Virus record (IMG/VR): IMGVR_UViG_3300037515_000591
Coordinates: 1 to 64,000 of that record
Reading direction: 5' to 3' (one strand)
From: a virus
DNA length: 64,000 nt
The translations under genes were made by a program, and so were the position numbers. Below are positions 22,807 to 50,243 of the stretch, piece after piece (position 1 is the first letter of the stretch; each line of letters opens with the position of its first letter). Under the pieces are notes generated by a model that had not been told where the DNA came from, did no database searches, and saw nothing but the letters and a program-made list of their open reading frames with translations.

Positions 22807-22816
22807 GGAGAAACCC

Positions 22817-25990: not shown

Positions 25991-26307
25991 GCCAACCACT
26001 CGACGAACAGCAGATGCGAGATGCCTGGGACACGGCTGTACAGGACTGCCTGACCGGGCACGAGAACTGCTCGTACGGCGGCATGACCCCACAGACCGGC
26101 TACTGGCTCCAAGCCGAGGGCTGCCAACTCAACCACGGTGAGAGGTGCGTGTGGTGCGGCGGCGAGGCGGAGACGGGGTTCTCCAACTGGGCCGACGACG
26201 GGTTTTCGATCTACCGGGTTCCTGCGTGTGAGGGGTGCGCGCAGCAGTGGGTGCGGTTCGATGTTCGGTGGGTGCGGAGCATCGCGGACGAGGAGCCCAC
26301 CCCGTGA
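25987..26307 (+). CDS. hypothetical Cys-rich protein
   Basis: ATG 25987 in ATGA overlap; TGHENC, CVWCGG, CEGC motifs. Confidence 0.45.
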   Translation: MSQPLDEQQMRDAWDTAVQDCLTGHENCSYGGMTPQTGYWLQAEGCQLNHGERCVWCGGEAETGFSNWADDGFSIYRVPACEGCAQQWVRFDVRWVRSIADEEPTP

Positions 26308-26738
26308 GCAACTACGCGTACGCCAGCGTCCCAGGCAACGACTCTGCGATCGTCGGCCCCGAAACCGTCAACGGCACCGGACAGGTCTACCTCCACGCCG
26401 ACGACCTCTGCTTCCTCAGCAACGAGGAAGCCCGCGAACTCGGGCGCGCGCTGATCGAGGCCGCCGACTACGCGAAGGCCGTGCAGAACGAGAAGGAGAA
26501 CTGGCCGGGCGGCGGACCGCCCAAGTCTGTACTCGACGTCGCGTGGACCGATCCGCAGTGGCGTTCCGCTGGCCCGGACGGCGACCCCGACACCGCGTGC
26601 AGCGCCTCTCACCGCCCAGACCCCCGCAGCACCAGCCCCCGGAGCGTTGCCCGTTGCACGCGGGGCTGCGGCCACTGCGGGGCGCACGCCGGGGCCGACT
26701 TCGACGGAAGGTCGTACCAGTGGGAGGACACGCGATGA
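26304..26738 (+). CDS. hypothetical protein
   Basis: GTG 26304 in GTGA overlap; 144 aa. Confidence 0.45.
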   Translation: MSNYAYASVPGNDSAIVGPETVNGTGQVYLHADDLCFLSNEEARELGRALIEAADYAKAVQNEKENWPGGGPPKSVLDVAWTDPQWRSAGPDGDPDTACSASHRPDPRSTSPRSVARCTRGCGHCGAHAGADFDGRSYQWEDTR

Positions 26739-26854
26739 CCGTCACGCTGCGACTCGTCGTCGAGACGTGCTGCGCCTGCCCCAACCAGTGGGACGCCTGG
26801 ACCGTCGACGGCCAATACCTTGCATGTCAACTATGTTCGCGAATAATGTTGTGA
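26735..26854 (+). pseudogene. 5' fragment of a small CxxC gene, truncated at an AT-rich junction
   Basis: MTVTLRLVVETCCACPNQWDAWTVDGQYL, then an abrupt drop in GC at about 26820 and a stop after 10 more codons. Confidence 0.5.
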
Positions 26855-26866
26855 CACAATGGAACT

Positions 26867-27064
26867 GTGACCGACTACAGCCAGCGACTCAAGAGGGCCC
26901 GCGCCGCCTATGACAGAGCGCGCTCCGCCTTGTTTGCAGAGATCAAGGAAGCGCTCGAAGCCGAAGACGGACCAACCGTCTCCCAGATCGCACGCGACGC
27001 CGATTTCACCCGCGAGTACATCGCCAAGATTCGCGATGGCCAGGGACCGAAGGAGACGCGATGA
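26867..27064 (+). CDS. small HTH DNA-binding protein associated with HNH cassette
   Basis: 65 aa; coiled-coil N-terminus then TVSQIARDADFTREYIAKIRDG; paralog-like to ORFs 53123 and 34817. Confidence 0.55.
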   Translation: MTDYSQRLKRARAAYDRARSALFAEIKEALEAEDGPTVSQIARDADFTREYIAKIRDGQGPKETR

Positions 27065-27624
27065 GCGGACGTGTCTGCGCAGTAGACGCATGCGAAAGGC
27101 CGCGCCATCGCCGCGACTGGTGCGTTATGCACCACAGCCGCTGGAAGCGGACGGGGAACCCGCTTGGCGCGCGAACCAGCCCCGACGTGCGGTTCTGGGC
27201 GAAGGTCGACAAGCGCGGTCCGATGTCGGAGCACCGCCCGGACCTCGGTGCATGCTGGGTGTGGACTGGCGGCAAGGATCGCCTCGGGTATGGGCACTTT
27301 TGGCTGGACCGCAGCCACGTGCTCGCCCATCGGTTCGCATACGAACTGCTGGTGGGCCCAATCGCGGGGAGTCTAGAGATGGACCACTTGTGCCGGGTTA
27401 GGCACTGCGTTAACCCGCACCACCTCGAACAGGTAACTCACCGGGTGAACACTCTGCGCGGCACGTGCCCTTCAGCGCAGGCGGCACGGGTGACCCACTG
27501 CCCACAAGGGCACGCGTACAACGAGGAGAACACCCGCATCTATCAGGGGCGACGGTACTGCCGTGAGTGCAGCCGTGAAGCGAGCCGCCGCTACAAGGCC
27601 TCTAAGCGGGCGGAGCGGGAGTGA
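27061..27624 (+). CDS. HNH endonuclease
   Basis: CWVWTGGKDRLGYGHFW...AHRFAYELLVG...EMDHLCRVRHCVNPHHLEQVTHRVN plus CPQGH...CRECS zinc ribbon. Confidence 0.85.
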   Translation: MSGRVCAVDACERPRHRRDWCVMHHSRWKRTGNPLGARTSPDVRFWAKVDKRGPMSEHRPDLGACWVWTGGKDRLGYGHFWLDRSHVLAHRFAYELLVGPIAGSLEMDHLCRVRHCVNPHHLEQVTHRVNTLRGTCPSAQAARVTHCPQGHAYNEENTRIYQGRRYCRECSREASRRYKASKRAERE

Positions 27625-27689
27625 TCACGCTGACGGAGTTCCTACGCCGGACGGGCCTGCGACTCGCACCAGACGCGGTGGTGAGCTGA
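27621..27689 (+). pseudogene. possible 3' remnant of the split gene (22 codons)
   Basis: GTG in GTGA overlap with HNH stop; VITLTEFLRRTGLRLAPDAVVS; its TGA overlaps the next ATG (TGATG). Confidence 0.35.
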
Positions 27690-28027
27690 TGAGTACCGAG
27701 TGGATGACGCCCGAGCAGATCCGGCAACACCGCGCCGCCGAGATCATGGAAGGCCCGCTCGGCCAAGCCATCTACGACGTCATCATCTGGACACGGAAGC
27801 AATGGCCACCCATGCGGTCCGATGACGAACTGTGGCTCAACCCCACCGACCACGGCGCCACCGTGCTGATCGGCGGCCGGGTGCTCGGCTACGAAGTGTG
27901 CGCCTCCGAACAGGTGCCGCCCGGCAAGGCGCTGATCTACTGCAAGGCCCTCAGCGCGTACGTGGGCGACGGGCAGATGCCGGACGGCCGGTACATGCTG
28001 GTGCGACTCCCGGAGATCACGCTGTGA
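27689..28027 (+). CDS. hypothetical protein
   Basis: ATG 27689; 112 aa. Confidence 0.5.
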   Translation: MSTEWMTPEQIRQHRAAEIMEGPLGQAIYDVIIWTRKQWPPMRSDDELWLNPTDHGATVLIGGRVLGYEVCASEQVPPGKALIYCKALSAYVGDGQMPDGRYMLVRLPEITL

Positions 28028-28335: not shown

Positions 28336-30390
28336 TCACTCCCAGCGGGCCACGAACGTGCCCCTGCACCGCACGCCGCCCTCGCACCGCAGATAGCCGC
28401 CCGCACCATACGCAGCCCGCACCGCGTCCAAGTCGTCGAACTCCGTGCCGTCGATCTCAGAGCACGGGTCACACACCCGGCTGTCGTTCTTCTCGCTCGC
28501 GAAATACCGGGCAGTCGGCGCAGCGGCCAACGTCGCCACCCGGCCCGCGTTCTGCGCCCGATGCAACGCACCCCCAAGCTGGTCACGCCGGAACCAATTC
28601 TTCAACCCCTTCAGGAACCGGGTGACCTTGCCCGCCACACCCTCACCGTCCGCACCCGGCGTCAGCAGACGCAACGCCTCACGCCCCGCAGACCCGGCAA
28701 GATCAGCAGCCAGCAGAGCAGCCGTCGCCGCGGCGATCTCCACCAACTCCGACCCGAACGCGTTCGTCAACGACCGGCTCAAACGCGGCGGCTTCACCTT
28801 CACACCCTGCTCGGCAGCCTCCGCCACCATCTGCGCGGCAGCAGCCTTCGCCATGTCGGCGAGCGCACCCCGCAGCACCTTCGCCGCCACATCCGAGTCC
28901 ACACTCAGATCAGCGAGCGCCTCAGTATCACCCGCATCCACCGCGGTCTCGATCTGCGCGGCGAGCGCCTCAACCTGCGCCTCCGCGACCGGCTCCCACG
29001 CCTCCAACAGCCCAGCCAGCGCCTCCTCGAACTGGACCCGCACCCGCTCCAACGCATCGTCATCAGCCTGCGCACGCACCCGACCGTGCTCCAACACCCG
29101 GTTGTACGACGGCTGCCCGGCAGGCAACGCGAACGGCACATGGTGATGCAAGTCCAGACGGGCCGCCGGCGCGGGCACAACCGGAGCCTGCTGAGGCGCC
29201 CGAGCAGGGGCCGGCGCCCGGTACCCCAGATCCGGCAAGCCCAAATACTCCGACGCCAACCGAGGATCCGCGCCCCCATCCACCAGCGTCTTCCACGCCA
29301 CCGTCTTCGACTCCGCCTCCTTCACCTCCAACTCCCGGTCCGTCGGAGTCGGATCCACAAAGTCGAACTCCAGGGCACGCGCCGCATCCTTGCCGTACAG
29401 CGGTAGCAACTGGTGGTTCAGCGCGCCGCGGATCGCCCGCAGATCCGGGACGACCAGCCAGCGGGAGAACATGACATCGGCGGCTTCCATGTTGGCGCGG
29501 TTCGCGTCATCAACTGTGCCGAGCATCGGCTTGGGGAAGCCGAGCCCTTCGCGGATGACCTCGCGGGACGCCGCGTTCGACTCGACGAACTGCATGTCGC
29601 GCTGCGTGTACTTGCGGTCCTTCCACACCCCGTGCTCCAGGAACGCGACACGGTGGGCGTTGGCAACACCCTTGTGCTGCTCGTCCCAGCGGGCCTGCAA
29701 CTGGTCCCACTCGGGGTCGGAGAGGACGGAGGGGAGTTCGATGATCCCGCCCGGCTCCGCGCTGTTCATGAAGAAGTTCCGCTGCCATTCGGCCGCGAAC
29801 TTGTTCGAGTCGATCTCGGCGAGCAGCGGCTGAATCGGCGAGATCCCCCGGTACGGATCCCTCGGGTGCGGCGTACGAATGAAGATCACGTCTTCCAGAC
29901 GCAACGCCACCTCCTCACCCCCCGGCCCCGTGTACATGTACCCCGACAGGAACTTCGTGGGATGCGGCACCGGCTGGATACGGTCCGGGCGCACATTCCA
30001 CATCTCCAGCGGCATCGTCGACCGGGCGCTATTCCGGGCGATCACCCACCACGTCTCCCCCGTCAAACCCTTGTGCTGCTGCCCCGCTTCCACGAAAATC
30101 TCGCGGGTGAAGAACGGGTTCGGCTTATTCCACAGGTCGAGCGCGGGATGAACCGCAACTTCCTGCCGGTCCTCCTTCAGCCCAGACTTGGCCTTGCGGT
30201 ACAGATGCCACTCCACCCCGGCCACAGCCTTCGACCAGCGGCTGACGATCGCATGGACGGTGCCCACCGTCTCCATCGCCCGCATCTGCGCCTCAGCACC
30301 GCTGGGTGCCCGCCACGGAATCGACAGCCCGCCACGGGCCGACACGTACGGCACCGGCGTCTTATTCCTCAGGGCACGTAGAGACCTCAC
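28336..30390 (-). CDS. portal protein (HK97 family) fused to MuF-like minor capsid domain
   Basis: HPALDLWNKPNPFF, GETWWV, FIRTPHPRDPYRGISP, FFMNSAEPGG portal motifs; C-terminal FASEKNDSRVCDPCSEIDGTEF MuF-like; GTG 30390 in GTGA overlap after GGAGAAGGGG. Confidence 0.85.
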   Translation of the reverse strand: MRSLRALRNKTPVPYVSARGGLSIPWRAPSGAEAQMRAMETVGTVHAIVSRWSKAVAGVEWHLYRKAKSGLKEDRQEVAVHPALDLWNKPNPFFTREIFVEAGQQHKGLTGETWWVIARNSARSTMPLEMWNVRPDRIQPVPHPTKFLSGYMYTGPGGEEVALRLEDVIFIRTPHPRDPYRGISPIQPLLAEIDSNKFAAEWQRNFFMNSAEPGGIIELPSVLSDPEWDQLQARWDEQHKGVANAHRVAFLEHGVWKDRKYTQRDMQFVESNAASREVIREGLGFPKPMLGTVDDANRANMEAADVMFSRWLVVPDLRAIRGALNHQLLPLYGKDAARALEFDFVDPTPTDRELEVKEAESKTVAWKTLVDGGADPRLASEYLGLPDLGYRAPAPARAPQQAPVVPAPAARLDLHHHVPFALPAGQPSYNRVLEHGRVRAQADDDALERVRVQFEEALAGLLEAWEPVAEAQVEALAAQIETAVDAGDTEALADLSVDSDVAAKVLRGALADMAKAAAAQMVAEAAEQGVKVKPPRLSRSLTNAFGSELVEIAAATAALLAADLAGSAGREALRLLTPGADGEGVAGKVTRFLKGLKNWFRRDQLGGALHRAQNAGRVATLAAAPTARYFASEKNDSRVCDPCSEIDGTEFDDLDAVRAAYGAGGYLRCEGGVRCRGTFVARWE

Positions 30391-30762: not shown

Positions 30763-31398
30763 GTGAATCCACCAGTTCAGGTTGTGTACAAGGGCGTTAC
30801 GTACAAGCGGAATCCCAACAGCGATGACTGGCCCAAGCGCGTGTATTACCAGGCGCCTCGCGGCAGCGGACGCGGATACCTGCACCGCGACGTCTTCACC
30901 GACGCCAATGGTCCGATCCCGGACGGCATGCACGTCCATCACCGAGACCACGACCCGTTCAACAACGACCCGTCGAATCTGACGCTCCTCACCCCGAAGC
31001 AGCACCGCCAAGAGCACAGCAAGAAGTTCGACGAAGCACGCATGAAGATCTTCAGGGAGACCACTCTCGCAGCTGCGGCGAAATGGCATGGAAGCGAAGA
31101 AGGCCGCGCTTGGCATCGGGAGCACGGCCGCAAGACCTGGGAGGGGCGCGAGACGAGCACCTTCACATGCCCTGAGTGTGGGGAGGAACACCAGGGGCAC
31201 TTCCTGGCGCGCACCGGCCCTGAACGGTACTGCTCAGGGCGTTGCAGGCAGCGAGCGGAATGGCGAACGAAGAAGTACTGGGAAGATGCCACCTGCCCCA
31301 TGTGCTCGGCAGCGTTCAAGCGACAGCGGGGACGTAGTGAGACTTGCTCGCGCAGTTGCGGGGCAAAGCTCAATTGGCAGCGGCGTGCGTCCTCATAG
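30763..31398 (+). CDS. HNH endonuclease, antisense to late operon
   Basis: GMHVHHRDHDPFNNDPSNLTLLTPKQHRQEH; C-terminal CPECG/CSGRC/CPMC/CSRSC zinc fingers; sampled GC about 57%. Confidence 0.8.
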   Translation: MNPPVQVVYKGVTYKRNPNSDDWPKRVYYQAPRGSGRGYLHRDVFTDANGPIPDGMHVHHRDHDPFNNDPSNLTLLTPKQHRQEHSKKFDEARMKIFRETTLAAAAKWHGSEEGRAWHREHGRKTWEGRETSTFTCPECGEEHQGHFLARTGPERYCSGRCRQRAEWRTKKYWEDATCPMCSAAFKRQRGRSETCSRSCGAKLNWQRRASS

Positions 31399-32838
31399 CC
31401 AACGGACCCTGGTCCGGGGACCGACAAAATAGGCCAAAAGCAACGCATCTGCGTTATCCGGGCTTCGGCCGATTCGCTTCTTCGTCTCATCCTTCGGCTC
31501 CACCACCGTCCGCCCCGCGCTGTCCGTCGTGTACTTCGGCGCCGTCAACTGCGACACCAACCGCTCCCGATCCTTCTCCTCCAGCCCCGACATGTCCCAC
31601 GCCAGATCCTCCGACAACTGCCGGCCCACCTCCCACCACAACTGCGACCGCAGATTCTTGAACCGGCCCGGATTCGACGACGCCTCCGACACGTTCACCC
31701 CCACCACCTGTGCCCGGTGCAAGCTCTGCGACTGCTTCTCCCGCAGTGAGCCGACCACGCCCCACCCGATCCCGATCGCATCCACCTTCACGATCGCGGC
31801 CTGCGACTGGTTGATCGCCTCCACGATCCGGGCCACAGACCTCACCGGATCCCGCTCACGGAACCGCCACTCCCGGCCCACCACCACACCACGCCGCTCA
31901 CGAATCACCGTCTCGTCACCGCCAGCACCCATATCGATCCCGAGCTCCACCGGCGTGAGCTGACCTGGCGGCCACGGGATATCGCGCGGCCGGCAGCAGG
32001 CACGGACTTTCGACAGGCGCACCACCCCGTCCTCCGCGTCCGACGGGAAATCCCCGAGGACCTTGCTGATGTAGGTGGGCGACTCCTCCCCGTACTCCAG
32101 CCGCATCTCCTCGACGTAAGCGTGGGAGACGAGCATCTCCCGCAGCTCGTCCGGGACTTCCTCGCCCGTGAAGTTGGGGGTGTCGAACGCCGAGATCTTG
32201 ATGGTGTTCCAGCGTCCACTCCCGCAGACGCGAGCGAACTCAGTCCCCGGGTCGTCCGGATTGCCGACAGCGAGAATGCGGCAGTGCTCGCCCGTGGCGA
32301 TCGCGCGCGCAGCGGTCCAGAACTGCTTGTTCACGCCGCACGCTTCATCCAAGATCACAAGCACGTACTTCGCGTGGATGCCCTGGAAGGCATGCGGGTT
32401 GTAGTCGGACGGTTTGCGGCCGAAAGCGATCAGCCGCTTCCCCAGCTTCCAGTCCGTCTCATTGATCCGCCCCAGAAACGGACGGCCCCGCGCCTCGGCC
32501 TTCGTGAACGCCCCGTTGATCTCAGACCACAGGATCGCCTTCACCTGATCCCCGGTCGGCGCAGTCGTCACCACCCGCGCCTCACCCGGCGGATGAATGT
32601 CCAGCCACCACGCCACCAACTGCGCAGCCAAGAAGCTCTTGCCGACACCGTGGCAGGACTGCACGGCCGTCTGCCGGTGGTCGCGCACCGACTCCGCAAT
32701 CTGGATCTGCTTCGACCACAGATGCGTGCCCAGCTTCTCCCGCGCCCACAAGCCCGGGTCGTCGACGTACTGCTCCGCGACAGCAGCCTCATCCGCCTGA
32801 TCCTCCAGGCGACCTGCGGCAAGCGTGATCGCGTCCAC
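31393..32838 (-). CDS. terminase large subunit
   Basis: HGVGKSFLAA Walker A-like, VLVILDEACGV Walker B; nuclease half with IDMGAGGDETV; 481 aa. Confidence 0.9.
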   Translation of the reverse strand: MDAITLAAGRLEDQADEAAVAEQYVDDPGLWAREKLGTHLWSKQIQIAESVRDHRQTAVQSCHGVGKSFLAAQLVAWWLDIHPPGEARVVTTAPTGDQVKAILWSEINGAFTKAEARGRPFLGRINETDWKLGKRLIAFGRKPSDYNPHAFQGIHAKYVLVILDEACGVNKQFWTAARAIATGEHCRILAVGNPDDPGTEFARVCGSGRWNTIKISAFDTPNFTGEEVPDELREMLVSHAYVEEMRLEYGEESPTYISKVLGDFPSDAEDGVVRLSKVRACCRPRDIPWPPGQLTPVELGIDMGAGGDETVIRERRGVVVGREWRFRERDPVRSVARIVEAINQSQAAIVKVDAIGIGWGVVGSLREKQSQSLHRAQVVGVNVSEASSNPGRFKNLRSQLWWEVGRQLSEDLAWDMSGLEEKDRERLVSQLTAPKYTTDSAGRTVVEPKDETKKRIGRSPDNADALLLAYFVGPRTRVRWL

Positions 32839-34769: not shown

Positions 34770-34816
34770 TACGGTTGGCAATGGCATACGCGTAGGCCAT
34801 GTGCAACCATGACCGC

Positions 34817-35371
34817 ATGGACACTGCCAACCTCGAACACACAGCACGCCGCTACCGAGATGCCGAAGCCGCCCTAGACGCAGCCCGCACCAATCTCCAG
34901 ACCGAAGTGATCGCCTTCCTCCAGCAGCACGCCAGCGAACGCGGCGCACAGACCACAGCCGCCACCATCACCGGATGGAGCCGCGAGCACCTGCGAGGAC
35001 TACGGAAGAAAGCCGAGGAAGAGGCCGAACGCGCCCGCCGCGAGGCTGTGGTGGAGGCGCTGCGCCGGAAGGTCGAGGAGCTCAGCGCCACGGGCGAGCC
35101 GCAGCCTGCTGCCGTCGCGCCTCGCGTGCAGGTCTCGGCGGTAGTGCCGTCAGAGCCGCTGCCCGAGCTGTTGCCGAGGGAGTTCCGCAAGGTGGTCGCG
35201 CGGGCTATGAGCCGTGCGAAGCCCGACCAGCGTGAACGGCTGAACCTGACCGCGAAGACTGCGGAGCAGTTGGGCCGCGACAAGAACGACGCGGTTCTGA
35301 AGGTGGCGTTCGAGTTGGGGCTGCTGAAGCACGACGAGGTGTACGGCACGAACGAGGAGCCGACCGCATGA
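34817..35371 (+). CDS. HTH-containing protein heading plus-strand island 2
   Basis: ATG 34817; coiled-coil N-terminus then TAATITGWSREHLRGLRKK. Confidence 0.5.
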   Translation: MDTANLEHTARRYRDAEAALDAARTNLQTEVIAFLQQHASERGAQTTAATITGWSREHLRGLRKKAEEEAERARREAVVEALRRKVEELSATGEPQPAAVAPRVQVSAVVPSEPLPELLPREFRKVVARAMSRAKPDQRERLNLTAKTAEQLGRDKNDAVLKVAFELGLLKHDEVYGTNEEPTA

Positions 35372-35691
35372 GCGAGGCAGTCACCTGGGTCGCCCAGCAG
35401 CTCACTGCGGCAGGATTCACCCCACTGCCGAGCCTTCACCCGTCCGAGTACTTCTCCGTGACGGGCTTCGCTGTCGAGGATGCCAGCGACCCGGACGCTG
35501 CCCGCGTGACGGTCACTGCACGGTTCACTGGCCAGGATCAGTACAAGCAGTGGGGTGAGGCGCGGCGGCTGGCCGGCAGGTTGATGGATGTGCTTCAGCC
35601 GCTGGGCGTCGGGTTCGAGGAGATCAAGGGCCGTGAGCCGAACTGCGCTTTCGACGCCTACCCGCCCGACAGCGAGGATGCGACCGCATGA
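35368..35691 (+). CDS. hypothetical protein
   Basis: 107 aa, ATGA overlap. Confidence 0.5.
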   Translation: MSEAVTWVAQQLTAAGFTPLPSLHPSEYFSVTGFAVEDASDPDAARVTVTARFTGQDQYKQWGEARRLAGRLMDVLQPLGVGFEEIKGREPNCAFDAYPPDSEDATA

Positions 35692-36119
35692 GCGCCCTAC
35701 GCCCCGCCACGCTCGACGAATACCTGACCTGGCTACGCGCCTGGCTCACACCCGATCGGCCACCCACGCACGCCTACAACTACCCGTGGGCGCGATGGAC
35801 GTGGCTCACCGCCACCCGCGACTTCACCCTCGGCGGCGAGTGCGGAGCAAACGCCGTGCACATCATCGTGCCTGACGGAATCGACTACGCGCGCGGCGAC
35901 ATCGGGCACAACGAGCTGTACTTCATGAACGGCCCCGTGCAGTGCGGCGGCCTAGTGCCGGTGTTCTCCGACCCGGCGTTCCAGTCGCTTCCTGGTGTGC
36001 CGGAGTTCATCGCGGCTGAGCGGCTGAAGGAGACTGCGTGGATGCGGGAGCAGGATGAGGCCGAAGAGCAGCGGCTACGGATGGCGGCAGACAGCGACGT
36101 GCCCCGGCGCGCCTGGTGA
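35688..36119 (+). CDS. hypothetical protein
   Basis: 143 aa, Trp-rich N-terminus, ATGA overlap. Confidence 0.5.
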   Translation: MSALRPATLDEYLTWLRAWLTPDRPPTHAYNYPWARWTWLTATRDFTLGGECGANAVHIIVPDGIDYARGDIGHNELYFMNGPVQCGGLVPVFSDPAFQSLPGVPEFIAAERLKETAWMREQDEAEEQRLRMAADSDVPRRAW

Positions 36120-36138
36120 GCAGCGAGGAGACGAGCAC

Positions 36139-36372
36139 GTGAGCAACGAACCCCGCAGGCCGTCTCCACCGGTGGCCGAGGAGATCCCCAATGTTCTGCC
36201 CGACGTCTCGTTGACCGTGGTCAACACCGAGTTCGGGCAGATCGCCGTGTCCGATCATCTGGTGCGGATCTGGAACCGGTACGGGTGGCCGGAGGACTCG
36301 GTACTCAAGCAGATGGCCGACGTGCAACCGCCGGACGGGTGGCCGGTGAGCGGCGAGGAGACCACCCCATGA
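36139..36372 (+). CDS. hypothetical protein
   Basis: GTG 36139 after GAGGAG. Confidence 0.45.
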   Translation: MSNEPRRPSPPVAEEIPNVLPDVSLTVVNTEFGQIAVSDHLVRIWNRYGWPEDSVLKQMADVQPPDGWPVSGEETTP

Positions 36373-36638
36373 GCAACGGCACCGGCTTCGACCGCGACCC
36401 CGAGGCCCTGGCATGGGCACGCAGCAAGGTCGACGTGTTCCTGACCCGCCTCGTCAGCTTCGAGGACCAAGCCGCCGCCGAAGACGACCTGACTACCGTG
36501 CACGCTTGTCGAGTGTCGCGCCGGATCGCTGAGCTGCACTTCCTTGGCGATGGTGACCGCCAGGTCGGGGCTTTCGACGAGCGTCTTCCTGGACTGGCCG
36601 ACGGAGGCCCAACCCCTGGCGAGGAGACCACCACATGA
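36369..36638 (+). CDS. hypothetical protein
   Basis: ATG 36369 in ATGA overlap. Confidence 0.45.
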   Translation: MSNGTGFDRDPEALAWARSKVDVFLTRLVSFEDQAAAEDDLTTVHACRVSRRIAELHFLGDGDRQVGAFDERLPGLADGGPTPGEETTT

Positions 36639-37033
36639 GCGACCGCGAGAACATCCTCTGCCACCTCATGGTCATCTTCTACGACAACACCCAAGGACTC
36701 GGCCTCTGCGGCTGCGGCAACCCCGAAGCCGCCTACGACCTCGTACGCGACCTCCTCAGCCTCGCCCCGTTCTACGAAGACTCCCACTGGAAGACCGCCG
36801 AAGCCCTGACCGGGAACATCCCCGGCGCCCATCACATCGTCCTCGGCGCCATGGACCGAGCCGGGCTGATCGAGCACGGATCGAGCCAGAACGGGGCGTG
36901 GCTCACGGACAAGGGCGAGTGGTGTCTCGCTGCGATGCGGACGGCGGAATTCGACGACCTCGATCAGCAGGGCTATCCGCACGATGGTGATGCGTGCACG
37001 GACGCCTGCTGGCGCCTACCCGTCGACGTGTAG
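36635..37033 (+). CDS. hypothetical Cys-containing protein
   Basis: 132 aa; LCGCGNPE motif; ATGA overlap. Confidence 0.5.
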   Translation: MSDRENILCHLMVIFYDNTQGLGLCGCGNPEAAYDLVRDLLSLAPFYEDSHWKTAEALTGNIPGAHHIVLGAMDRAGLIEHGSSQNGAWLTDKGEWCLAAMRTAEFDDLDQQGYPHDGDACTDACWRLPVDV

Positions 37034-37273: not shown

Positions 37274-37359
37274 GATGGGGCTCCTGTCTCGCGTGTCGGG
37301 ATGGGACCGGGGCGGCCGGTTAGCTGGCAGGCAGGCGGCCGCCCCGGGGTCTTGTGGGC

Positions 37360-37638: not shown

Positions 37639-38709
37639 CTACGATGACTTGACTAGACGGCCGTTGATCACGTCGTACCTGTGCACCCCTGGGCCGTTCC
37701 CCTTCGGGGTGCGTACGCCGGGCCGTACGTTGATGTCGGCCTTGTCGAGAAGGTCTCGCACGGCCTTGGTGTCCCCGAGACCGAAGCGTTCACGAACCGT
37801 AGTGAGCAGTACTCCCCTGTCGTCGCCTACTAGCCGGGCAACGGCCGCTCTCACCTGGTCCGAGCTTGCGGTAGCAGCATCGAACGAATCGTCTCCCGTA
37901 TCGGCGAAGACCTTGCGAGAGTGCCCAGGCCCAGGGCACGGGCTGATGAAGCCGCGTTGTTCCAAGGCGTCCAGCAGCTTCGCGGCCCTGGAAAAGCCGA
38001 TCTTTAGACGTTGCTGGAGCATGGTCGCCGAGGCGATGCCGGTAGAGGTGACCAACTCTGCTGCCTGCGCCAAGAGGTCGTCTGTCTGCCTCTTGCGCAG
38101 ATCGAAAGCCTCGGCCTCGCTCGGGTTGTGACTTGCTACGAATTGCTTGATGTCTCGCGTGTACTTGAACCACTCGCTCCGTCGGACTCGCGCGTCCTTG
38201 AAGCGGTCGTGCAGCGCGGCTTCGAGTTCCCTGCCACCAGCCAGGGTCAGCGCGACGTTCTCCTTCGGCTGGGCCAGAGACGACAGGCGTCCGCCCAAGT
38301 TCGTCGAATAGCCGATCTTGACCCGGTCTCCGTTCGCGATGAAGTAGACGACCGGCTCGTGAGGTCCGCTGAATACGGGCTGAACGGCTTTACCGAAGAC
38401 TGGCTGCTGGACTGTCCCTGATGCGGCAGCCGCCAGCATCTCCGGGACGATGGAGATGGCCACCTGCATCCGGTGCCGCTGGCACAGCGCTACGGGAACG
38501 GTGGACGTCACGATGTCGGTGCACGGCTGCCCGCTGTCGGCCGCAAGGCAGCGCGCGCTAAGGTCGGTCATGTCGATCTCCTTTGCAGATCGGCCATGCC
38601 CCGGGACCGTTGGCGCGGTCGCCGGGGTCAGTCTTTGGTTGTGTCTCAAGTATCCCATGTGCACCACCTGTTGAGAGCCATCCGGCATGCCTAGAAGCGC
38701 GTAGATCAT
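37639..38709 (-). CDS. T5orf172 (GIY-YIG-related) domain - FtsK gamma domain fusion protein
   Basis: VVYFIANGDRVKIGYSTNLGGRLSSL...EAALHDRF...SEWF; ASATMLQQRLKIGFSRAAKLLDALEQRGFIS; ATG 38709 in ATGA overlap. Confidence 0.75.
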   Translation of the reverse strand: MIYALLGMPDGSQQVVHMGYLRHNQRLTPATAPTVPGHGRSAKEIDMTDLSARCLAADSGQPCTDIVTSTVPVALCQRHRMQVAISIVPEMLAAAASGTVQQPVFGKAVQPVFSGPHEPVVYFIANGDRVKIGYSTNLGGRLSSLAQPKENVALTLAGGRELEAALHDRFKDARVRRSEWFKYTRDIKQFVASHNPSEAEAFDLRKRQTDDLLAQAAELVTSTGIASATMLQQRLKIGFSRAAKLLDALEQRGFISPCPGPGHSRKVFADTGDDSFDAATASSDQVRAAVARLVGDDRGVLLTTVRERFGLGDTKAVRDLLDKADINVRPGVRTPKGNGPGVHRYDVINGRLVKSS

Positions 38710-39449
38710 GTGGTCTTCACCTCCTCTCCAACCCCGGAGAGCGGCGGAGAATCGGCGCTCTGACCTGCATCTCCACCGGAATCCACAGGCGACTCTCCAT
38801 CGGAGGGGAGGAGGGCCTCGACGTCGCCTCGGCGGACCCCTGAGCGGCCCGCGACTCGGCCCAGGCGGAGGCTGCGATGGACGGGCACATCGAAGGCCCG
38901 GAGTAGGGCCCTCAACTCGGCGTCCGTACGCCCCTCGTGCCCAGGCAGTTCGCGCATCGCCGGGTACAGCTCGCGGAGGTGGATTCCGGGCCGCTTGCCG
39001 ATGGTGTCGAGGAGCCATTGGGCGAGCGCGTGTCGGGGGTCTGCGGGGGCGTCCTCGGCGGCCTCCGGCTGGGTCTCGTCGGGGGTACGTGCGGTGCGCC
39101 GCTCGGTCCATGCGGTTGCCCGGTCGAGGTACTCCTTCGGGATGAACAGGAGCACCGCGGCCAGCCAGGCGAGGATGATGCCGGCCGCGGTCCAGCCGCC
39201 GTAGAAGCCGACCGCCCACACGGCGACGACGTGGACGCCCCACGCCCAGCCGGTGCCGAAGCGGGCGGCGATCCACGAGCTCGGCCCGCACACACCCAGG
39301 AGCAGCGCGCCGAGGCTGCCGGGCGGCTCGGCCGGCGCCTCATCGACGACGGGCTCGGTCTCTTCGTCCAGCTCATCGACCACCTCGTCGAGGTCCTCCT
39401 CGACGGGCGCCGGCTCGGGCTGGTGTTTCCGCAGGCTGAAGTACGTCAT
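38706..39449 (-). CDS. membrane protein with acidic N-terminus and cytoplasmic winged-helix-like C-terminus
   Basis: ATG 39449 in ATGA overlap; TM segments VHVVAVWAVGFYGGW and IILAWLAAVLLFI; tail GIHLRELY...LRALLRAFDVPV...GRSGVRRGDV. Confidence 0.55.
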   Translation of the reverse strand: MTYFSLRKHQPEPAPVEEDLDEVVDELDEETEPVVDEAPAEPPGSLGALLLGVCGPSSWIAARFGTGWAWGVHVVAVWAVGFYGGWTAAGIILAWLAAVLLFIPKEYLDRATAWTERRTARTPDETQPEAAEDAPADPRHALAQWLLDTIGKRPGIHLRELYPAMRELPGHEGRTDAELRALLRAFDVPVHRSLRLGRVAGRSGVRRGDVEALLPSDGESPVDSGGDAGQSADSPPLSGVGEEVKTT

Positions 39450-39850
39450 GCCAGGTTCGCCCCCAGGTCGGCGATCGCGTCGGAGATGTACGCCCACGTG
39501 CCGCCTGCACCTGCGGCGATGTACCAGAAGAAGATCCCCAGGACGCCGATCTGCTTCGTCGTCAGCCGCTTGAACAGAATGAAGATCGCCATGGACAGGG
39601 CGAGCGCGGGCATCGTCACGCCGGGGATCACATCGTTGACGGTCGCGATGAGGCTGCCCACGAAGTCCGGGACGAACTTGAAGAAGCCTCCGGCCGCCTT
39701 ATAGGCGGACCCGGCGAGCATCGACAGAATCAGGGTGGGCCACCAGCCGAGCGGCTTCAACCGGCCGCCGCCGGGGATCCCGACGAGCAAGAGCACGGTG
39801 AGGACGACGGCCAGGCCGACGGTGCCGAGGTTGCCGAACACGCTGTTCAC
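39446..39850 (-). CDS. four-TM membrane protein
   Basis: 134 aa, four long hydrophobic segments. Confidence 0.6.
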   Translation of the reverse strand: MNSVFGNLGTVGLAVVLTVLLLVGIPGGGRLKPLGWWPTLILSMLAGSAYKAAGGFFKFVPDFVGSLIATVNDVIPGVTMPALALSMAIFILFKRLTTKQIGVLGIFFWYIAAGAGGTWAYISDAIADLGANLA

Positions 39851-39859
39851 GACGGGTTC

Positions 39860-40570
39860 CTAAGGCTGGTAGCCGGTGCCGTACAGGGCGATACCGGCGA
39901 TGACGGATGAGACGGGGACGGCAGCAGCCCAGGCGACGGGCCACGCCCACGTGCGGGAGCGCCGGTACAGGGCGCAGGCGCAGAACCCGAGGCCGTACAG
40001 GGCGAATGCGGAGGGGCTGGCCCAGTGGCCGTCGGCGTACCAGGCGGCGGTGTCGGTGCCCCAGTCGACCCAGCCGAGCGGCCAGCCTGCTGCGGCGGCG
40101 GTGGCGTGGTAGATGAGCCAGCGGATGCGGTTGGGGATGCGGTCGTAGGCGTCGAGGAGGGATTGGCGGGGCGGGTGGGGCTGGTCGTCGCGGTATGTGG
40201 GGCGGGCGGTGCGGCGCTTGGGCGGCCGTGGGGCGGGGGCCCGGGTCGGGCCGGGGTCCGCGGGTTCTTCTACTGGCTCCGGTTCGTCCTCGGCGGGCTC
40301 CTCGTCGGCCTCGCCGGCGTCGTCGGCGGTGAGGTCGGTGGGCTTGCGGCTCCACCAGTTCGGGAGCCGTGGCGCAGCCCGGCGCGTGGGCGGCCTGGGC
40401 TGCTCGTCGCCGTACAGGTCGTCCCACCACGCGTCTTCCGCTGCGGGCCGGTATCCGTCCGACGGCGGGCCGGGCGGCATGGGTGGTGGCGTGGCGTCCG
40501 GGCCGTCGATGAGACGGCGGAGACTGCCGCGGATACGGAGCTCGTCAGCGCCGGGCTTCGTCTCGCCCAT
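39860..40570 (-). CDS. Pro-rich N-terminus / C-terminal multi-TM protein
   Basis: ATG 40570 (TGATG overlap); first 42 aa paralogous to ORF 40710-40958; C-terminal WLIYHATAAAAGW..., FALYGLGFCACALY, AAAVPVSSVIAGIALYG. Confidence 0.55.
   Translation of the reverse strand: MGETKPGADELRIRGSLRRLIDGPDATPPPMPPGPPSDGYRPAAEDAWWDDLYGDEQPRPPTRRAAPRLPNWWSRKPTDLTADDAGEADEEPAEDEPEPVEEPADPGPTRAPAPRPPKRRTARPTYRDDQPHPPRQSLLDAYDRIPNRIRWLIYHATAAAAGWPLGWVDWGTDTAAWYADGHWASPSAFALYGLGFCACALYRRSRTWAWPVAWAAAVPVSSVIAGIALYGTGYQP
40445..40570 (-). repeat. copy 1 of ~126-nt duplicated 5' coding segment
   Basis: about 75% nucleotide identity by eye to 40833-40958. Confidence 0.6.
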
Positions 40571-40710
40571 CACAGCCCCCACCACATCTGAACGGCGATC
40601 ACGACGGCCATGGCCAGGGAGACGCGGGAGAGGAAACGGGCGTCGGAGGCAGGCGCGCGCCATCCGGCGGCAGCGACGGCCAGGAACCCGCCGAGGAGGA
40701 GGTAGCCCAT
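40570..40710 (-). CDS. 46-aa membrane peptide (not in ORF track)
   Basis: own translation MGYLLLGGFLAVAAAGW...LAMAVVIAVQMWWGL; TGATG overlaps at both ends. Confidence 0.4.
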   Translation of the reverse strand: MGYLLLGGFLAVAAAGWRAPASDARFLSRVSLAMAVVIAVQMWWGL

Positions 40711-40958
40711 CACGCGCCCCTCAGGTAGCGGTTGACGGTCTCCGGCTTGGCGACTGATTCCGGGACGTGCGCGGGGGGCGGGGGTGTGGCGTTGCTGTCG
40801 AGGATGTCGTCGAGCCAGTCCCGCGGGCGCGCGGGCCGGTAGCCGTCAGGTGGCGGCCCAGGCGGCATGGGTGGGGGTTCGACTGTGGGGCCGTCGACGA
40901 GCTTGCGGAGACGGTCCTGGATACGGCGCTCGTCGGCGTCCGGCTTCGCCCCGCTCAT
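40710..40958 (-). CDS. small Pro-rich protein, paralog of the N-terminus of ORF 39860-40570
   Basis: KPDADERRIQDRLRKLVDGPTVEPPPMPPGPPPDGYRP vs KPGADELRIRGSLRRLIDGPDATPPPMPPGPPSDGYRP. Confidence 0.5.
   Translation of the reverse strand: MSGAKPDADERRIQDRLRKLVDGPTVEPPPMPPGPPPDGYRPARPRDWLDDILDSNATPPPPAHVPESVAKPETVNRYLRGA
40833..40958 (-). repeat. copy 2 of ~126-nt duplicated 5' coding segment
   Basis: see 40445-40570. Confidence 0.6.
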
Positions 40959-41974
40959 GACCGCACCTGCCGGGCTTCGCGCAGGTACCGCTTCGCGGTC
41001 GCGGGACTCACGTCCAGGAGCTCAGCGACCTGAGCTGAGGTGAGCCCCGAGTCCTGAGCCACGAGCTCAGCCACCCGCGCCACGCTCTGAGCCCGCTGGG
41101 CCGACTGTGCGGTGAGGTGTGCGGAGAACCCGAAGGCGTGGGCCTCGGGCTCGGCAGCCTGGGCCTGAGGCTCAGGTGCTGCGGCCTGCGACGACGTGAG
41201 AACGATGGGCGCGCCGGACGGGTGAGGCTCAACCATCTGAGCCTCGGGCTCAACCGCCTGAGCCTCGGGCTCGGTGGGCTCATCGCGCCGCGCCTCGGGC
41301 CCTGGCTGAGCTACCTCGATGGCCTGAGCCGCTACCTCATCGAACGCGCGAAGAGACTCGGCAGTTGAGCCGGCCGTCAGGGCGAGTGGCGTACGGCGCT
41401 GGATCTCGGCACGCTTCTCGATCCGCTCCAGGCTGATCTGGAAGTCGGCGTCATCGCGGGCAAGGACGGTGCGCGCTTCAGCCTTGATACGGGCGATCTC
41501 CGCGTCCGCGGCCCGGGTGAGCTGCTCCAGGCCGGCCTCGTGGAGCTGCGCGGTGTACGAGCTGCTGCGCATGACGTCGTGGATCTCGGCCTGCTGCTCC
41601 GGGGTGAGGGCGGCCGGGTCGCGCATCGCGGCGAGCGCGAACACCCACACGATCTTCCCGACGCCCACGACGAACGGCCCAGCGATCGCCTGCCCGCGGG
41701 ATGCTTCGGCTCCGTGGATGACGAGGAGGACGGCGACACCGACGGCGATGGCCCAGCCGGCCAGTGGGGCGGGCCATCGGCGGCCGCCGATGGTGACGCC
41801 CTGGTACTCGGCCCACAGGACGGTGACCCAGCCGATGTCTCCGGCGAGGGCGACGGACAGGCCGAACGGTCCGCTGTGCATGAGGTCGGTGATGGCGTAG
41901 GCGGACCAGATGAGGGAGAGGGCTGCGAGGGCGGCGGCGCCGTAGGTGATGGCGGGCCGACGGGTGGTCTTCAT
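40955..41974 (-). CDS. DUF2637-like four-TM protein with repeat linker and C-terminal HTH
   Basis: ATG 41974; N-terminal TM bundle; EPEAQAVEPEAQMVEP/PEPQAQAAEPEA repeats; C-terminal LTSAQVAELLDVSPATAKRYLREAR. Confidence 0.6.
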   Translation of the reverse strand: MKTTRRPAITYGAAALAALSLIWSAYAITDLMHSGPFGLSVALAGDIGWVTVLWAEYQGVTIGGRRWPAPLAGWAIAVGVAVLLVIHGAEASRGQAIAGPFVVGVGKIVWVFALAAMRDPAALTPEQQAEIHDVMRSSSYTAQLHEAGLEQLTRAADAEIARIKAEARTVLARDDADFQISLERIEKRAEIQRRTPLALTAGSTAESLRAFDEVAAQAIEVAQPGPEARRDEPTEPEAQAVEPEAQMVEPHPSGAPIVLTSSQAAAPEPQAQAAEPEAHAFGFSAHLTAQSAQRAQSVARVAELVAQDSGLTSAQVAELLDVSPATAKRYLREARQVRS

Positions 41975-48465: not shown

Positions 48466-48619
48466 CGGGTGCCTCCTCGGCTTGCCGGGCGGTGTGTGCG
48501 GTTTTGCGTGCGTCGTGGCTGGCGATGGCGAGTTTCCGGCCGCGGGGGCTGGTGCAACGCTGGCCGGGCGGGGCCTGGCACCAGGGGCAGCGGACCGACC
48601 ACTCCGGAAGCTGGGTCAC
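48452..48619 (-). CDS. 55-aa zinc-finger protein
   Basis: GTG 48619 in GTGA overlap; CPWCQAPPGQRCTSPRG...SHDAR. Confidence 0.45.
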   Translation of the reverse strand: MTQLPEWSVRCPWCQAPPGQRCTSPRGRKLAIASHDARKTAHTARQAEEAPDEPS

Positions 48620-49389
48620 GACGCCTCGGTCTTCCGGAGGCCGTCTTGGAACTCGTCCAGTTGGGCGCGCTCCTGAGGCGTCAGCCGGGCGAGACGGTCC
48701 CGGGCGGCAGCGCGGAGCCGTTCCTCTTCGGCGGCGGCCTGTTCGGCGGTCTGCTCCGGTGCGCCCTGTGCGGCCCTGAGGCGGGCGCTGTGCGGCTTCG
48801 GGCGGGGTTTCCCCAGCGGCTGCTTCGCGGAGCCGCCTGGCGTCTTGCATGGGCGTCCTATGGCGGCGTGGCAGGCGGGGCACTCGATGCCGAGCGGCCC
48901 GGTGCGGCGGACGGTGTCGACGAGCTCCGTCTTCACCGCGCCCTCGTCGGAGTCCGGGACCGTCCGGATGTCTTCCCAGCCGCGGGCCTCCAGCCCGTCT
49001 GTGAGCTGTTTCGACGGACCGCCGGTGAGAGCCAGCCGGCTGGAGGGTGGTGCGATGCGGCCGGAGGCGATGGCCTGGGTCTGGCCGCGGAGTCGGGCGA
49101 GGTACTCCTGCCATGTCTCGTCGCCGACGGGCTCGTACTGGAAGTTCACCAGCCGCGCCGAACGCAGCTTCGTACGGAGGGTGCGGATGTGGTGCGGGAG
49201 GATCCACAGCCGCTCTCCCGGGTTTTGCGGCGGGGTCGTGTAGTACACGGCGACCGCGGCCTTCGCATCAGAGTCGAGCGGCACGTCGTGGAGGGCGGAG
49301 GCCCAGGCAACCGCGGCGGCGACGGAGGGCTGCCGGTTGTCGAAGGAGGTGCAGTGGCCGAGGAGTTCGGCGGCTTCGTCGGGGTTCAT
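48616..49389 (-). CDS. hypothetical replication-module protein with zinc-finger motif
   Basis: ATG 49389 in ATGA overlap; CPACHAAIGRPCKTPGG...HSAR, same motif as the downstream 55-aa ORF. Confidence 0.55.
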   Translation of the reverse strand: MNPDEAAELLGHCTSFDNRQPSVAAAVAWASALHDVPLDSDAKAAVAVYYTTPPQNPGERLWILPHHIRTLRTKLRSARLVNFQYEPVGDETWQEYLARLRGQTQAIASGRIAPPSSRLALTGGPSKQLTDGLEARGWEDIRTVPDSDEGAVKTELVDTVRRTGPLGIECPACHAAIGRPCKTPGGSAKQPLGKPRPKPHSARLRAAQGAPEQTAEQAAAEEERLRAAARDRLARLTPQERAQLDEFQDGLRKTEAS

Positions 49390-50243
49390 GCGGAGTCTCC
49401 TTGCTCGCGGAGTTGGGCGGCGATGGCGGCCCAGCCGGCGACCTTGGCGTCGGTGCCGGTGAGGGTGGTTTGGCCCCCGCCGGAGAGCGGGACGAGGAAG
49501 GCGCCTTGGGTGGGCCGGGTGGCCCGGTCGGCGGCTTTTTTGGCGTCGTCGCGGATCCACTTCTGCCAGGCGTCGGGCCAGCTTTTGCGGCGGGTGCCGG
49601 TGGATCGGTAGTGGCTGACGAACTGGGCGGTGGAGTGCTCGATGTCGAGACCGGGGTATGTGGCTGCGACCCAGCGACGCATCGAGTCGGTTAGCTGGAA
49701 GCCGTCGATCTCGATCGGAGTGGGCGCGGGAGGGCCGTCAGGCCGGGCGGTCGGAGCCGTCGGCCGAGGCTGGTTCGAAGAGGCCTCAGCCCCCTCTTTC
49801 TGCGTTCCTTCTGGTGTATCTGCGTTAACTGCGTTATGGGGTGCGGATTCTGCACCCCTACCGGTACGGATTCCGTACCCCCCCGGTACGGAATCTGTAC
49901 CCCTGGGGGTGCCGTTTCTGGACCGGTACGGATTCCGTACCGGTACAGAATCCGTACCCCCCTTACGGGTGTGGCCCTTGGCGCCGGGGAGGCGGTAGCG
50001 GGTCTCTCCGTGCGGTCCCTTCTGGCCGAGCACGATCTCCAGTTCGCCGGATTCGAGGAGGGCGTCGACCGCCTTGATCACGGCTGTCCGTGACGCCTGT
50101 GAACGACGGATCAGGAAGGTGGTCCCGGCGTACGCCGAGACGTCCGGCCCGCTCGCCTTGTCGGCGATGGCGAGCAGCACGAGTCGCGCCGTGTTCTTGG
50201 AAGCGGAGTGCTCCCATACCCAGTCCTGTGCGTCGAGGCTCAA
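49386..50243 (-). CDS. replication initiator/organizer-like protein (N-terminal winged HTH)
   Basis: ARLVLLAIADKA...TFLIRRSQASRTAVIKAVDALLESGELEI; C-terminal FVSHYRSTGTRRKSWPDAWQKWI; TTG start after AGAAGGA; iterons in the linker-coding region. Confidence 0.6.
   Translation of the reverse strand: MSLDAQDWVWEHSASKNTARLVLLAIADKASGPDVSAYAGTTFLIRRSQASRTAVIKAVDALLESGELEIVLGQKGPHGETRYRLPGAKGHTRKGGTDSVPVRNPYRSRNGTPRGTDSVPGGYGIRTGRGAESAPHNAVNADTPEGTQKEGAEASSNQPRPTAPTARPDGPPAPTPIEIDGFQLTDSMRRWVAATYPGLDIEHSTAQFVSHYRSTGTRRKSWPDAWQKWIRDDAKKAADRATRPTQGAFLVPLSGGGQTTLTGTDAKVAGWAAIAAQLREQGDSA
49841..49959. repeat. six 17-bp palindromic iteron-like repeats (putative ori)
   Basis: GGTRCRGAWTCYGYACC-type copies at 49841, 49864, 49886, 49909 (degenerate), 49926, 49943; two are perfect GGTACGGATTCCGTACC; flanked by 3x CTGCGTT at 49801-49836. 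Confidence 0.65.

Follow-up and report, generated by a model that had tools for sequence, protein, structure and literature searches.

What is the DNA-reading gamma domain of a chromosome pump doing in a nuclease-like phage protein, and why does the neighboring membrane protein end in a tail that resembles the tail of the nuclease? These questions are raised by a gene in a 64,000-nt segment of viral DNA (positions 1-64,000 of IMG/VR record IMGVR_UViG_3300037515_000591), which is referred to below, as a whole, as the window. The window is a tailed-phage segment with a GC content of 68.1%, in which nearly all transcription runs from right to left; the phage is temperate and of the Streptomyces type. 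The gene, called here the nuclease gene, closes a series of membrane-protein genes in the interval that separates the early from the packaging genes (Table 1). A preliminary description of the sequence reported a single open reading frame (ORF) that combines a T5orf172 nuclease-like domain with an FtsK gamma domain, and predicted motif-guided DNA recognition by a protein tethered to a membrane partner. From the comparisons described below, we consider it rather probable that the gene is a free-standing, homing-endonuclease-like gene of the T5orf172 family (GIY-YIG superfamily), which moves between related Streptomyces temperate phages. This reading was absent from the preliminary description and explains more of the data: the nuclease behaves as a mobile homing-endonuclease gene and not as a fixed membrane-tethered machine.

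The ORF had originally been drawn from position 38709. Most relatives of the nuclease, however, start with MTD or MSD at the position of its M47, several of them have in-frame stop codons just upstream of the equivalent start, and in the window an AAGGAG sequence stands 6 nt upstream of the ATG at 38571. We therefore place the nuclease gene at 37639-38571 (310 amino acids). The start at 38709 is wrong, and the additional 46 codons belong to a conserved, non-coding leader (see below).

The encoded protein is soluble and consists of a T5orf172 (GIY-YIG-like) domain and three modules of DNA-binding type; no hydrophobic segment was found in its 310 residues by hydropathy analysis. The N-terminal cluster of Cys and His residues seen in the preliminary description is a genuine family feature, since C8, C17, C30, and H33 (310-residue numbering) are nearly invariant in the family alignment. 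In an AlphaFold2 (AF2) model built from 36 relatives (mean predicted local distance difference test score, pLDDT, 85.8), the pLDDT at residues 11-40 was 92-95. The claim that T5orf172 and FtsK gamma domains are present in one ORF also stood, both being recovered by Pfam above the cut-offs. For the nuclease-like domain (T5orf172/MUG113, PF10544/PF13455, of the GIY-YIG clan), MUG113 was matched with E = 1.1e-9 (39.2 bits versus a cut-off of 22.3) and T5orf172 with E = 1.6e-6 (29 bits versus a cut-off of 20). A structure search of viral models in BFVD returned phage T5orf172/MUG113/GIY-YIG nucleases as best matches. In the tighter family alignment, Y76, K85-I86-G87, R95, E117, H121, R128, and E133-W-F are invariant, and Y76, R95, and E133 were at least 90% conserved in two further family alignments. 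By analogy with a published alignment of Gp88 of phage ICP1 (PMC8263062), the latter three residues would correspond to the strand-1 Tyr, the helix-1 Arg, and the metal-binding Glu of the GIY-YIG core.

The gamma domain was recovered by Pfam (FtsK_gamma, PF09397) with E = 8.4e-18 and 64.3 bits (cut-off 30.6), covering profile positions 2-61 of 63. It aligned end to end with the gamma of Pseudomonas aeruginosa FtsK (2J5O, 2VE8/2VE9; E = 4e-7), and the Escherichia coli gamma structure was matched as well. Foldseek superimposed the gamma of the model on 2VE8/2VE9/2J5O with template modeling (TM) scores of 0.80-0.89 and root-mean-square deviations of 1.4-2.3 Å; with 2J5P included, the ranges were 0.72-0.89 and 1.4-3.3 Å, at a probability of 1.00. 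The domain thus has the same fold as FtsK/SpoIIIE/TraB gammas (P. aeruginosa 2VE8/2VE9, E. coli 2J5P) and aligns with them over its full length at 34-38% identity. Its nearest relatives are the gammas of other T5orf172 proteins (52-55%), among which the recognition helix varies and which share with it a wing loop (GPCxGxGxSR in the window protein) that is one residue longer than in FtsK gammas. The positions that read FtsK orienting polar sequences (KOPS) in E. coli FtsK, N1296, R1300, and E1303, are S, K, and D in the helix FSRAAKLLD, and the loop TSTGIA, which differs from that of E. coli FtsK, gives no indication of XerD binding, which would count against a role in XerD contact. When the E. 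coli KOPS consensus (GGGNAGGG) and the 8-mer of pSVH1 TraB (GACCCGGA) were used as queries, neither was enriched in the 64-kb window, these being motifs of other systems that may not be the ones read by this gamma. Clusters of 8-mers in the window were not found near the nuclease gene. As a separate observation, the E. coli-type KOPS consensus is under-represented in the window, with 6 copies versus 15.2±3.5 in shuffled sequences.

In agreement with the earlier statement that the gamma stands without a motor, Pfam found no ATPase domain in the nuclease protein, and neither a second gamma domain nor a strict Walker A motif was found in the six-frame ORFs of the window. The nuclease is therefore not an FtsK/TraB translocase, and its gamma, without an alpha/beta motor, cannot orient one. 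It is reasonable to suppose that the added domains would instead give the nuclease sequence-guided DNA recognition. The C-terminal tail, with the topology helix-strand-helix-helix-strand-strand in the AF2 model, is predicted to be a winged helix; neither a Pfam family nor a relative among PDB sequences was found for it. A likeness of the tail to DUF3631 was considered but not borne out.

The upstream gene (the partner gene) had been described as encoding a membrane protein, and the hydropathy of its product is consistent with this: its segments at 74-109 are hydrophobic enough for a membrane protein. The pattern proposed to be shared by the C-termini of both proteins was upheld by profile comparison but failed the pairwise one. 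A profile made only from the tails of T5orf172 relatives matched the C-terminus of the partner with E = 3.3e-9, the sole other significant match among 861 six-frame ORFs of the window (none else at E≤0.05), while pairwise BLASTP between the two tails of the window was not significant (E = 6.2, 22% identity). BLASTP connects the partner tail with nuclease tails of other loci. Homology of the nuclease and partner tails is supported, at the level of profiles.

When 51 tail domains were clustered, the tail of the window nuclease fell into a tight group with that of protein P0001 (87% identity). The rest of this group consists of the partner-gene tails of loci L002, L003, L004, L006, and L011 and a stand-alone 87-residue protein, P0063 (49-65% identity); for every other nuclease tail, identity to that of the window nuclease does not exceed 40%. 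The partner in the window carries a different tail subtype, closest to the L030 partner tail (45%) and the L006 nuclease tail (41%). Across the window and loci L002-L011, it looks as if the adjacent nuclease and partner genes had traded tail subtypes. Read most simply, the clustering means that a gene of the zinc (Zn)-T5orf172-gamma type, similar to that for P0010, recombined with the 3' end of a partner-type gene. Because the subtype borne by the window nuclease is otherwise found on the partner genes of other phages, a physical tether fits the data no better than domain capture by recombination does.

The site of the nuclease gene is variably occupied. A search with a 134-residue membrane protein of the upstream cassette as a query returned five viral contigs, in which the copies are 77-82% identical. 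In four of them (L021, L022, L024, and L025), no gene intervenes between the partner gene and a homologue (65-73% identical) of the 82-residue gene that lies downstream of the nuclease gene in the window, and a T5orf172 domain was not found within ±8 kb of the site. In the fifth, L023, the same site holds a different ORF of 278 residues (9169-10005), which starts with GSIYTL...IRYVGKT, a GIY-YIG motif. This ORF scored 19.9 bits with Pfam GIY-YIG, just below the cut-off of 22.6, and its C-terminal half is hydrophobic; it suggests that the intergenic site may be a hot spot for endonuclease genes. The nuclease gene itself occupies the site in the window, L001, and L048.

Among these carriers, a block of high nucleotide identity comprises the leader and the ORF and has its 3' edge at the stop codon. 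The window and L048 are 83-100% identical from 38726 to 37647, versus 47-85% in the upstream partner gene and 63-72% past the stop codon. The window and L001 are 97-100% identical from about 39020 to 37643, versus 80-93% in the 5' part of the partner gene and 78-88% past the stop codon; the block shared with L001 takes in some 300 bp of the partner gene, in the manner of a co-conversion tract. The partner gene, which borders the insertion, has diverged much further (41-43%) than the genes on both sides. In composition the nuclease gene is also distinct: its GC content is 62.9-63.5% versus 68.1% for the window, its GC content at third codon positions (GC3) is 0.77 versus 0.869±0.034, the lowest of 80 genes in the window, and in 12 of 14 loci the GC content of the family gene is below that of the flanks. 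The GC deficit noted in the preliminary description was therefore modest but real; the tape measure gene used there as a reference has a GC content of 67.4% and not about 70%. Judging from these comparisons, the nuclease gene is an insertion, and its recent acquisition, as proposed earlier, is supported by its presence and absence among relatives, the high-identity block, and the low GC3.

An exhaustive HMMER search for the family returned 7062 proteins at E≤1e-3, while a word-index protein search gave 9 hits. Domain architectures were determined with four home-made domain profiles for the window protein, the word-index hits, and the 150 best cluster representatives. In this set, 81 sequences have the architecture Zn-T5orf172 and 11 Zn-T5orf172-tail, several carry the tail in an N-terminal or internal position, and at least 8 clusters combine T5orf172 with gamma, counting all orders. 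The combinations with gamma are Zn-T5orf172-gamma-tail (the window protein, P0001, and P0002), Zn-T5orf172-gamma (P0010), T5orf172-gamma (P0012, P0022, P0098, and viral contig L026), Zn-T5orf172-tail-gamma (P0013), and tail-Zn-T5orf172-gamma (P0014); three of these were confirmed by Pfam above threshold. Fusion of T5orf172 with gamma has thus occurred rarely but repeatedly, with the parts shuffled.

Genome and viral scans showed that the family is nearly confined to Streptomyces phages and prophages. It is also present on 85-102 kb Streptomyces plasmids, which are likely phage-plasmids since they carry terminase and head genes. At two plasmid loci, L019 (CP075614.1) and L020 (NZ_CP109332.1), the Zn-T5orf172 genes are annotated as coding for a GIY-YIG nuclease family protein; on CP075614.1 and on Streptomyces zaomyceticus plasmids the Zn-T5orf172 gene adjoins a DUF2637/SpdB_N-like gene. 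Wherever upstream DNA was available, the gene before Zn-T5orf172-tail and T5orf172-gamma genes encodes a membrane protein that ends in the tail, and further upstream the same multi-transmembrane and DUF2637/SpdB_N-like proteins are encoded. Terminase genes lie downstream in family loci, and in L026 directly after the family gene. One protein, P0094 (522 residues), has a DUF2637/SpdB_N-like multi-transmembrane N-terminus, a T5orf172 domain, and a C-terminal helix-turn-helix; it may connect the membrane cassette with the nuclease in the manner of a Rosetta-stone protein, or may be an artefact of assembly or gene calling. In L011 (10462-11264), the Zn module and the T5orf172-tail part are in different frames, possibly because of a decaying copy or a sequencing error. 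A megablast search of 30-46 kb against isolated phage genomes gave no match, tblastn gave only partial, single-domain matches in these genomes, and no tblastn match to the proteins of the upstream cassette was found there.

In DNA alignments, a stretch of ~60 nt upstream of the nuclease start codon is conserved even between loci with no more than 36-48% protein identity. RNAalifold predicted 19 pairs in the leader, with compensatory changes in 7, and folding of the single sequence gave the same two hairpins. Hairpin 1 (38599-38627) is GC-rich, and its arms differ between loci in a compensatory fashion (GACCG/CGGTC versus GGGTG/CACCC or GAGCG/CGCTC). Hairpin 2 (38569-38598) pairs the Shine-Dalgarno region (AAGGAG, 38578-38583) and the start codon. 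Neither an Rfam match nor a sigma-70-like promoter or a canonical terminator was found in the leader.

The homing reading is favored because the variable occupancy of the site, the alternative ORF in L023, the identity block, and the leader hairpin match the traits of free-standing endonuclease genes of T-even phages. Such genes are intergenic, occupy sites that may be empty or hold different endonuclease genes in relatives, cut a neighboring gene, co-convert flanking DNA, and have hairpins that sequester the ribosome-binding site (PMC2988022). The window gene shares with T-even seg (GIY-YIG) and mob (HNH) genes the intergenic insertion, the variable or alternative occupancy, the co-conversion-like flanks, and the hairpin at the ribosome-binding site; unlike them, it belongs to a different GIY-YIG branch, has different DNA-binding domains, and resides in a temperate actinophage. 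In the homing mechanism that we propose, the Zn module, gamma, and tail would jointly bind a long asymmetric target site, which would be cut by the T5orf172 domain. The target would probably be the allele that does not carry the nuclease gene, at or close to the partner gene. In repairing the break, the RecT/exonuclease system of the phage would copy the nuclease gene, together with some flanking DNA, into the cut genome. Expression may be kept low or late by the hairpins of the leader, including the one in which the ribosome-binding site and the start codon are paired. Gamma and the tail would have been captured by recombination, and such shuffling may change specificity within the family.

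Modular, homing-endonuclease-like T5orf172 genes are already known as a kind of element. Phage T5orf172 genes are treated as homing endonuclease genes with modular, exchangeable Zn-finger DNA-binding domains, and are often located near terminase genes (PMC10448857; Barth, Dunham & Seed 2023). The window gene and those of ICP1 and other phages have the same T5orf172 domain with Zn and other DNA-binding modules arranged as 'beads on a string', the same domain shuffling, the same intergenic location near packaging genes, and the same variable presence (PMC10448857). The Zn module of the window protein (CX8CX12CX2H) is set apart by its spacing from the CapR/DUF723/DUF4397 type (CxxC...CxC) described there, and the window gene adds FtsK gamma and an unnamed actinophage winged helix in a high-GC temperate actinophage host. 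The same paper makes no mention of FtsK or gamma; in the literature searched, FtsK_gamma and GIY-YIG were not found together, and the co-mentions of T5orf172 and FtsK examined were in unrelated passages. What is new relative to this literature is gamma as a nuclease-targeting module, the unnamed tail exchanged with a membrane-protein gene, and the Streptomyces prophage setting.

A precedent for the capture of a targeting domain is ICP1 Gp88 (Odn), a T5orf172 nuclease with a RepA_N-like domain captured from the PLE satellite, which cuts the PLE replication origin (PMC8263062; Barth et al. 2021). In both Odn and the window nuclease, T5orf172 is combined with a DNA-binding domain gained from a DNA-handling protein of another element, and in Odn the captured domain dictates where the cut is made. 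Odn has an N-terminal DNA-binding domain and a C-terminal nuclease domain, whereas in the window protein DNA-binding modules flank the nuclease domain; Odn captured RepA_N and targets the PLE origin, while the window protein captured gamma and a winged helix of the neighbor's type. Gamma domains that serve without a motor as DNA-recognition modules are also found in phages Sam46/Sam112, where the domain is joined to a Terminase_2 domain instead of a nuclease domain; the same source describes the function of solitary phage gamma genes as unknown (PMC8190038).

Several points weigh against homing. We infer nuclease activity from conserved residues and comparative patterns; T5orf172 has a Lys in place of the second Tyr of GIY-YIG, and activity was demonstrated only in distant members of the family. 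The arrangement of a transmembrane partner with a tail followed by Zn-T5orf172 is conserved across many diverged loci, the nuclease and the partner share a domain, and P0094 fuses a DUF2637-like membrane domain to T5orf172; together, these point to a gene with a cooperative role and not a purely selfish one. Identity of the ORF above that of its flanks could partly reflect stronger purifying selection. Finally, since the contigs with the empty site are only about 80% related, loss of the gene is possible instead of gain.

The alternative that best survives, though we hold it to be unlikely, is a domesticated weapon, i.e., an exclusion nuclease that would act with its membrane partner, through contact between the tails or by binding of both to the same DNA site, and would cut competing or incoming DNA at the membrane. 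The DNA that it cuts would be that of superinfecting phages, of phage-plasmids, or of conjugative elements that move in double-stranded form, and its specificity (gamma, tail) would be borrowed from the target's own DNA-handling proteins, as in the case of Odn with RepA_N, which is the precedent (PMC8263062). Such a function would account for a partner-nuclease pair that is kept in all family loci with upstream sequence and for the homologous tails of the two proteins, with the window nuclease carrying the tail subtype of other phages' partners and its own partner another; it is also in keeping with the joining of a DUF2637-like membrane domain to T5orf172 in P0094 and with the Zn-T5orf172 genes that adjoin SpdB_N-like genes on 85-100 kb Streptomyces plasmids with terminase genes. 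The partner cassette, however, occurs without the nuclease in L021, L022, L024, and L025, and homing is the simpler explanation for both the variable occupancy of the site and the sharp edges of the identity block. Among PADLOC models, the nuclease had a single weak match, to candidate PDC-S57 (E = 1.4e-3, 16 bits), which is not convincing, and five neighboring proteins had none; the nuclease is not a known defence system. The lack of enrichment of the pSVH1 TraB 8-mer and KOPS in the window also speaks against exclusion, though the target would lie elsewhere.

A narrower version, close to the prediction of the preliminary description, appears doubtful to us. It holds that the nuclease is half of a two-part, membrane-anchored device, in which the paired tails would dock T5orf172-gamma on an Spd-like cassette protein while gamma would read polar 8-mers on entering double-stranded DNA, so that rival mobile DNA would be excluded. 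The DNA in question, crossing the Streptomyces membrane or septum in double-stranded form, would be that of conjugative plasmids or actinomycete integrative and conjugative elements (AICEs) moved by TraB, or of a superinfecting phage, and the exchange of tail subtypes would reflect co-evolving docking or target specificity.

It is improbable that the protein is an accessory nuclease of packaging, which would aid terminase as the HK97-type HNH protein does at cos, with gamma and the tail reading the packaging site. The HK97 HNH protein is encoded upstream of terminase and works with it to cut cos (PMC10448857), and a fusion of gamma with the small terminase exists in Bacillus phages Sam46/Sam112 (PMC8190038). 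The family gene does lie upstream of terminase genes in the window, L002, L019, L020, and L026, and in L026 the T5orf172-gamma gene directly precedes a likely small terminase gene, which is followed by that for the large subunit. In the window, however, 4.8 kb, about 10 genes, and an opposite-strand block separate it from the large terminase gene, and this packaging module does not require the nuclease gene, since closely related contigs are without it.

Least probable of all is a non-catalytic DNA binder (a transcription regulator, or a modulator of host XerCD/FtsK acting through gamma) in which T5orf172 would only bind DNA, as first proposed for Bro-N/T5orf172; three modules of DNA-binding type, the contacts of FtsK gamma with XerD as well as with DNA (XerD-gamma fusion structure 5DCF), and the annotation of a 99% relative as 'MarR family regulator' by the Joint Genome Institute would agree with this, but Tyr, Arg, and Glu at the catalytic positions of the GIY-YIG type do not vary within the family, and the mobility signatures are not expected of a regulator.

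Table 1. Features of the nuclease locus and other genes of the 64,000-nt window
Feature	Position	Strand	Basis
Nuclease coding sequence, 310 amino acids (aa) + stop	37639-38571	minus	Pfam, start-codon evidence, AF2 model
N-terminal Cys-X8-Cys-X12-Cys-X2-His (Zn) module, then long helix (aa 1-50)	38422-38571	minus	alignment, pLDDT
T5orf172/MUG113 nuclease-like domain (aa 66-152)	38116-38376	minus	Pfam, alignment, BFVD
FtsK gamma winged helix (aa 162-222)	37906-38088	minus	Pfam, PDB sequence match, Foldseek
C-terminal tail, predicted winged helix, ~70 aa (aa 230-303), 'partner-type' subtype	37663-37884	minus	jackhmmer census, AF2
Conserved 5' leader	38569-38705	minus	DNA alignments, RNAalifold, single-sequence fold
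High-identity block (leader + ORF) shared with other carriers, 3' edge at stop codon	37643-38726	minus	nucleotide identity
Upstream partner gene, membrane protein with homologous C-terminal tail (~38817-39029)	38706-39449	minus	profile, hydropathy
Conserved upstream membrane cassette: 134-aa multi-transmembrane, Pro-rich transmembrane, 82-aa, and DUF2637/SpdB_N-like + C-terminal helix-turn-helix proteins	39446-41974	minus	PHROG/Pfam, synteny
Downstream flanking gene, 82 aa, CxxC N-terminus, C-terminal transmembrane segment	37360-37608	minus	65-73% identical in L021-L025, junction alignment
Endolysin	578-1543		
1255-aa gene, tape measure in the preliminary description	6400-10167		no Pfam match
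ClpP-type protease + HK97-type capsid	18466-21749		
Portal	28336-30390		
Terminase large subunit	31393-32838		
RecT-like protein	60962-62083		

The upstream membrane cassette is syntenic in L001-L006, L011, and L021-L025. Its protein encoded at 40955-41974 is 68% identical to an L002 protein flagged, weakly, as SpdB_N, and is the only one in the window with such a resemblance. Four copies of GCCTCGGGCTC at 41142-41300, inside this gene, probably correspond to a repeated EPEAQ peptide in the linker before the helix-turn-helix. PHROG and NCBIfam searches found no function for the small neighboring genes. The downstream flanking gene, whose product starts with MPYEYxCxxC, is kept in all related loci; this N-terminus recalls FmdB-type zinc ribbons. 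A GC-rich hairpin after the gene (CCCCGGGGCGGCCG...CGGCCGCCCCGG, 37308-37350) could end the transcription unit.

In addition to the genes in Table 1, the window encodes an RNase_T-type exonuclease and WhiB. Small plus-strand genes form two blocks (22603-28027 and 34799-37033) that break the otherwise minus-strand late region, and no functions were found for the genes in them; one of the blocks separates the portal gene from the protease/capsid genes by ~6 kb, a distance uncommon in head modules of the HK97 type. A 0.9-kb gap between the genes at 48616-49389 and 50316-51101 contains direct and inverted copies of ACCGGTACGGA / TCCGTACC (49860-49951), which look like iterons or operators and perhaps mark an origin or a repressor-binding region. 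Two other interpretations of the nuclease locus were rejected: a lysis cassette, as the endolysin gene is at the far end of the late operon, and an AICE adjoining a prophage, as the entire window is phage and contains no FtsK/TraB motor. Likewise, a Streptomyces Spd/TraB plasmid-spread apparatus was not found in the window, which has no TraB/FtsK motor and is of phage type over its whole length (capsid, portal, terminase, endolysin, RecT).

Should the nuclease prove active, the combination of three DNA-reading modules might serve engineering as a natural example of how long asymmetric sites are recognized; if the membrane-partner reading were true, the pair would be a new kind of exclusion system. 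The analysis defines an unnamed winged-helix domain of ~70 residues, which is shared and exchanged by actinophage membrane proteins and nucleases. It also offers a concrete, testable candidate role for at least some of the orphan phage gammas (PMC8190038). FtsK gamma, best known for steering a chromosome pump, joins the DNA-targeting modules that mobile phage nucleases capture, and the picture of T5orf172 homing, drawn from vibriophages, is extended to temperate Streptomyces phages and phage-plasmids.

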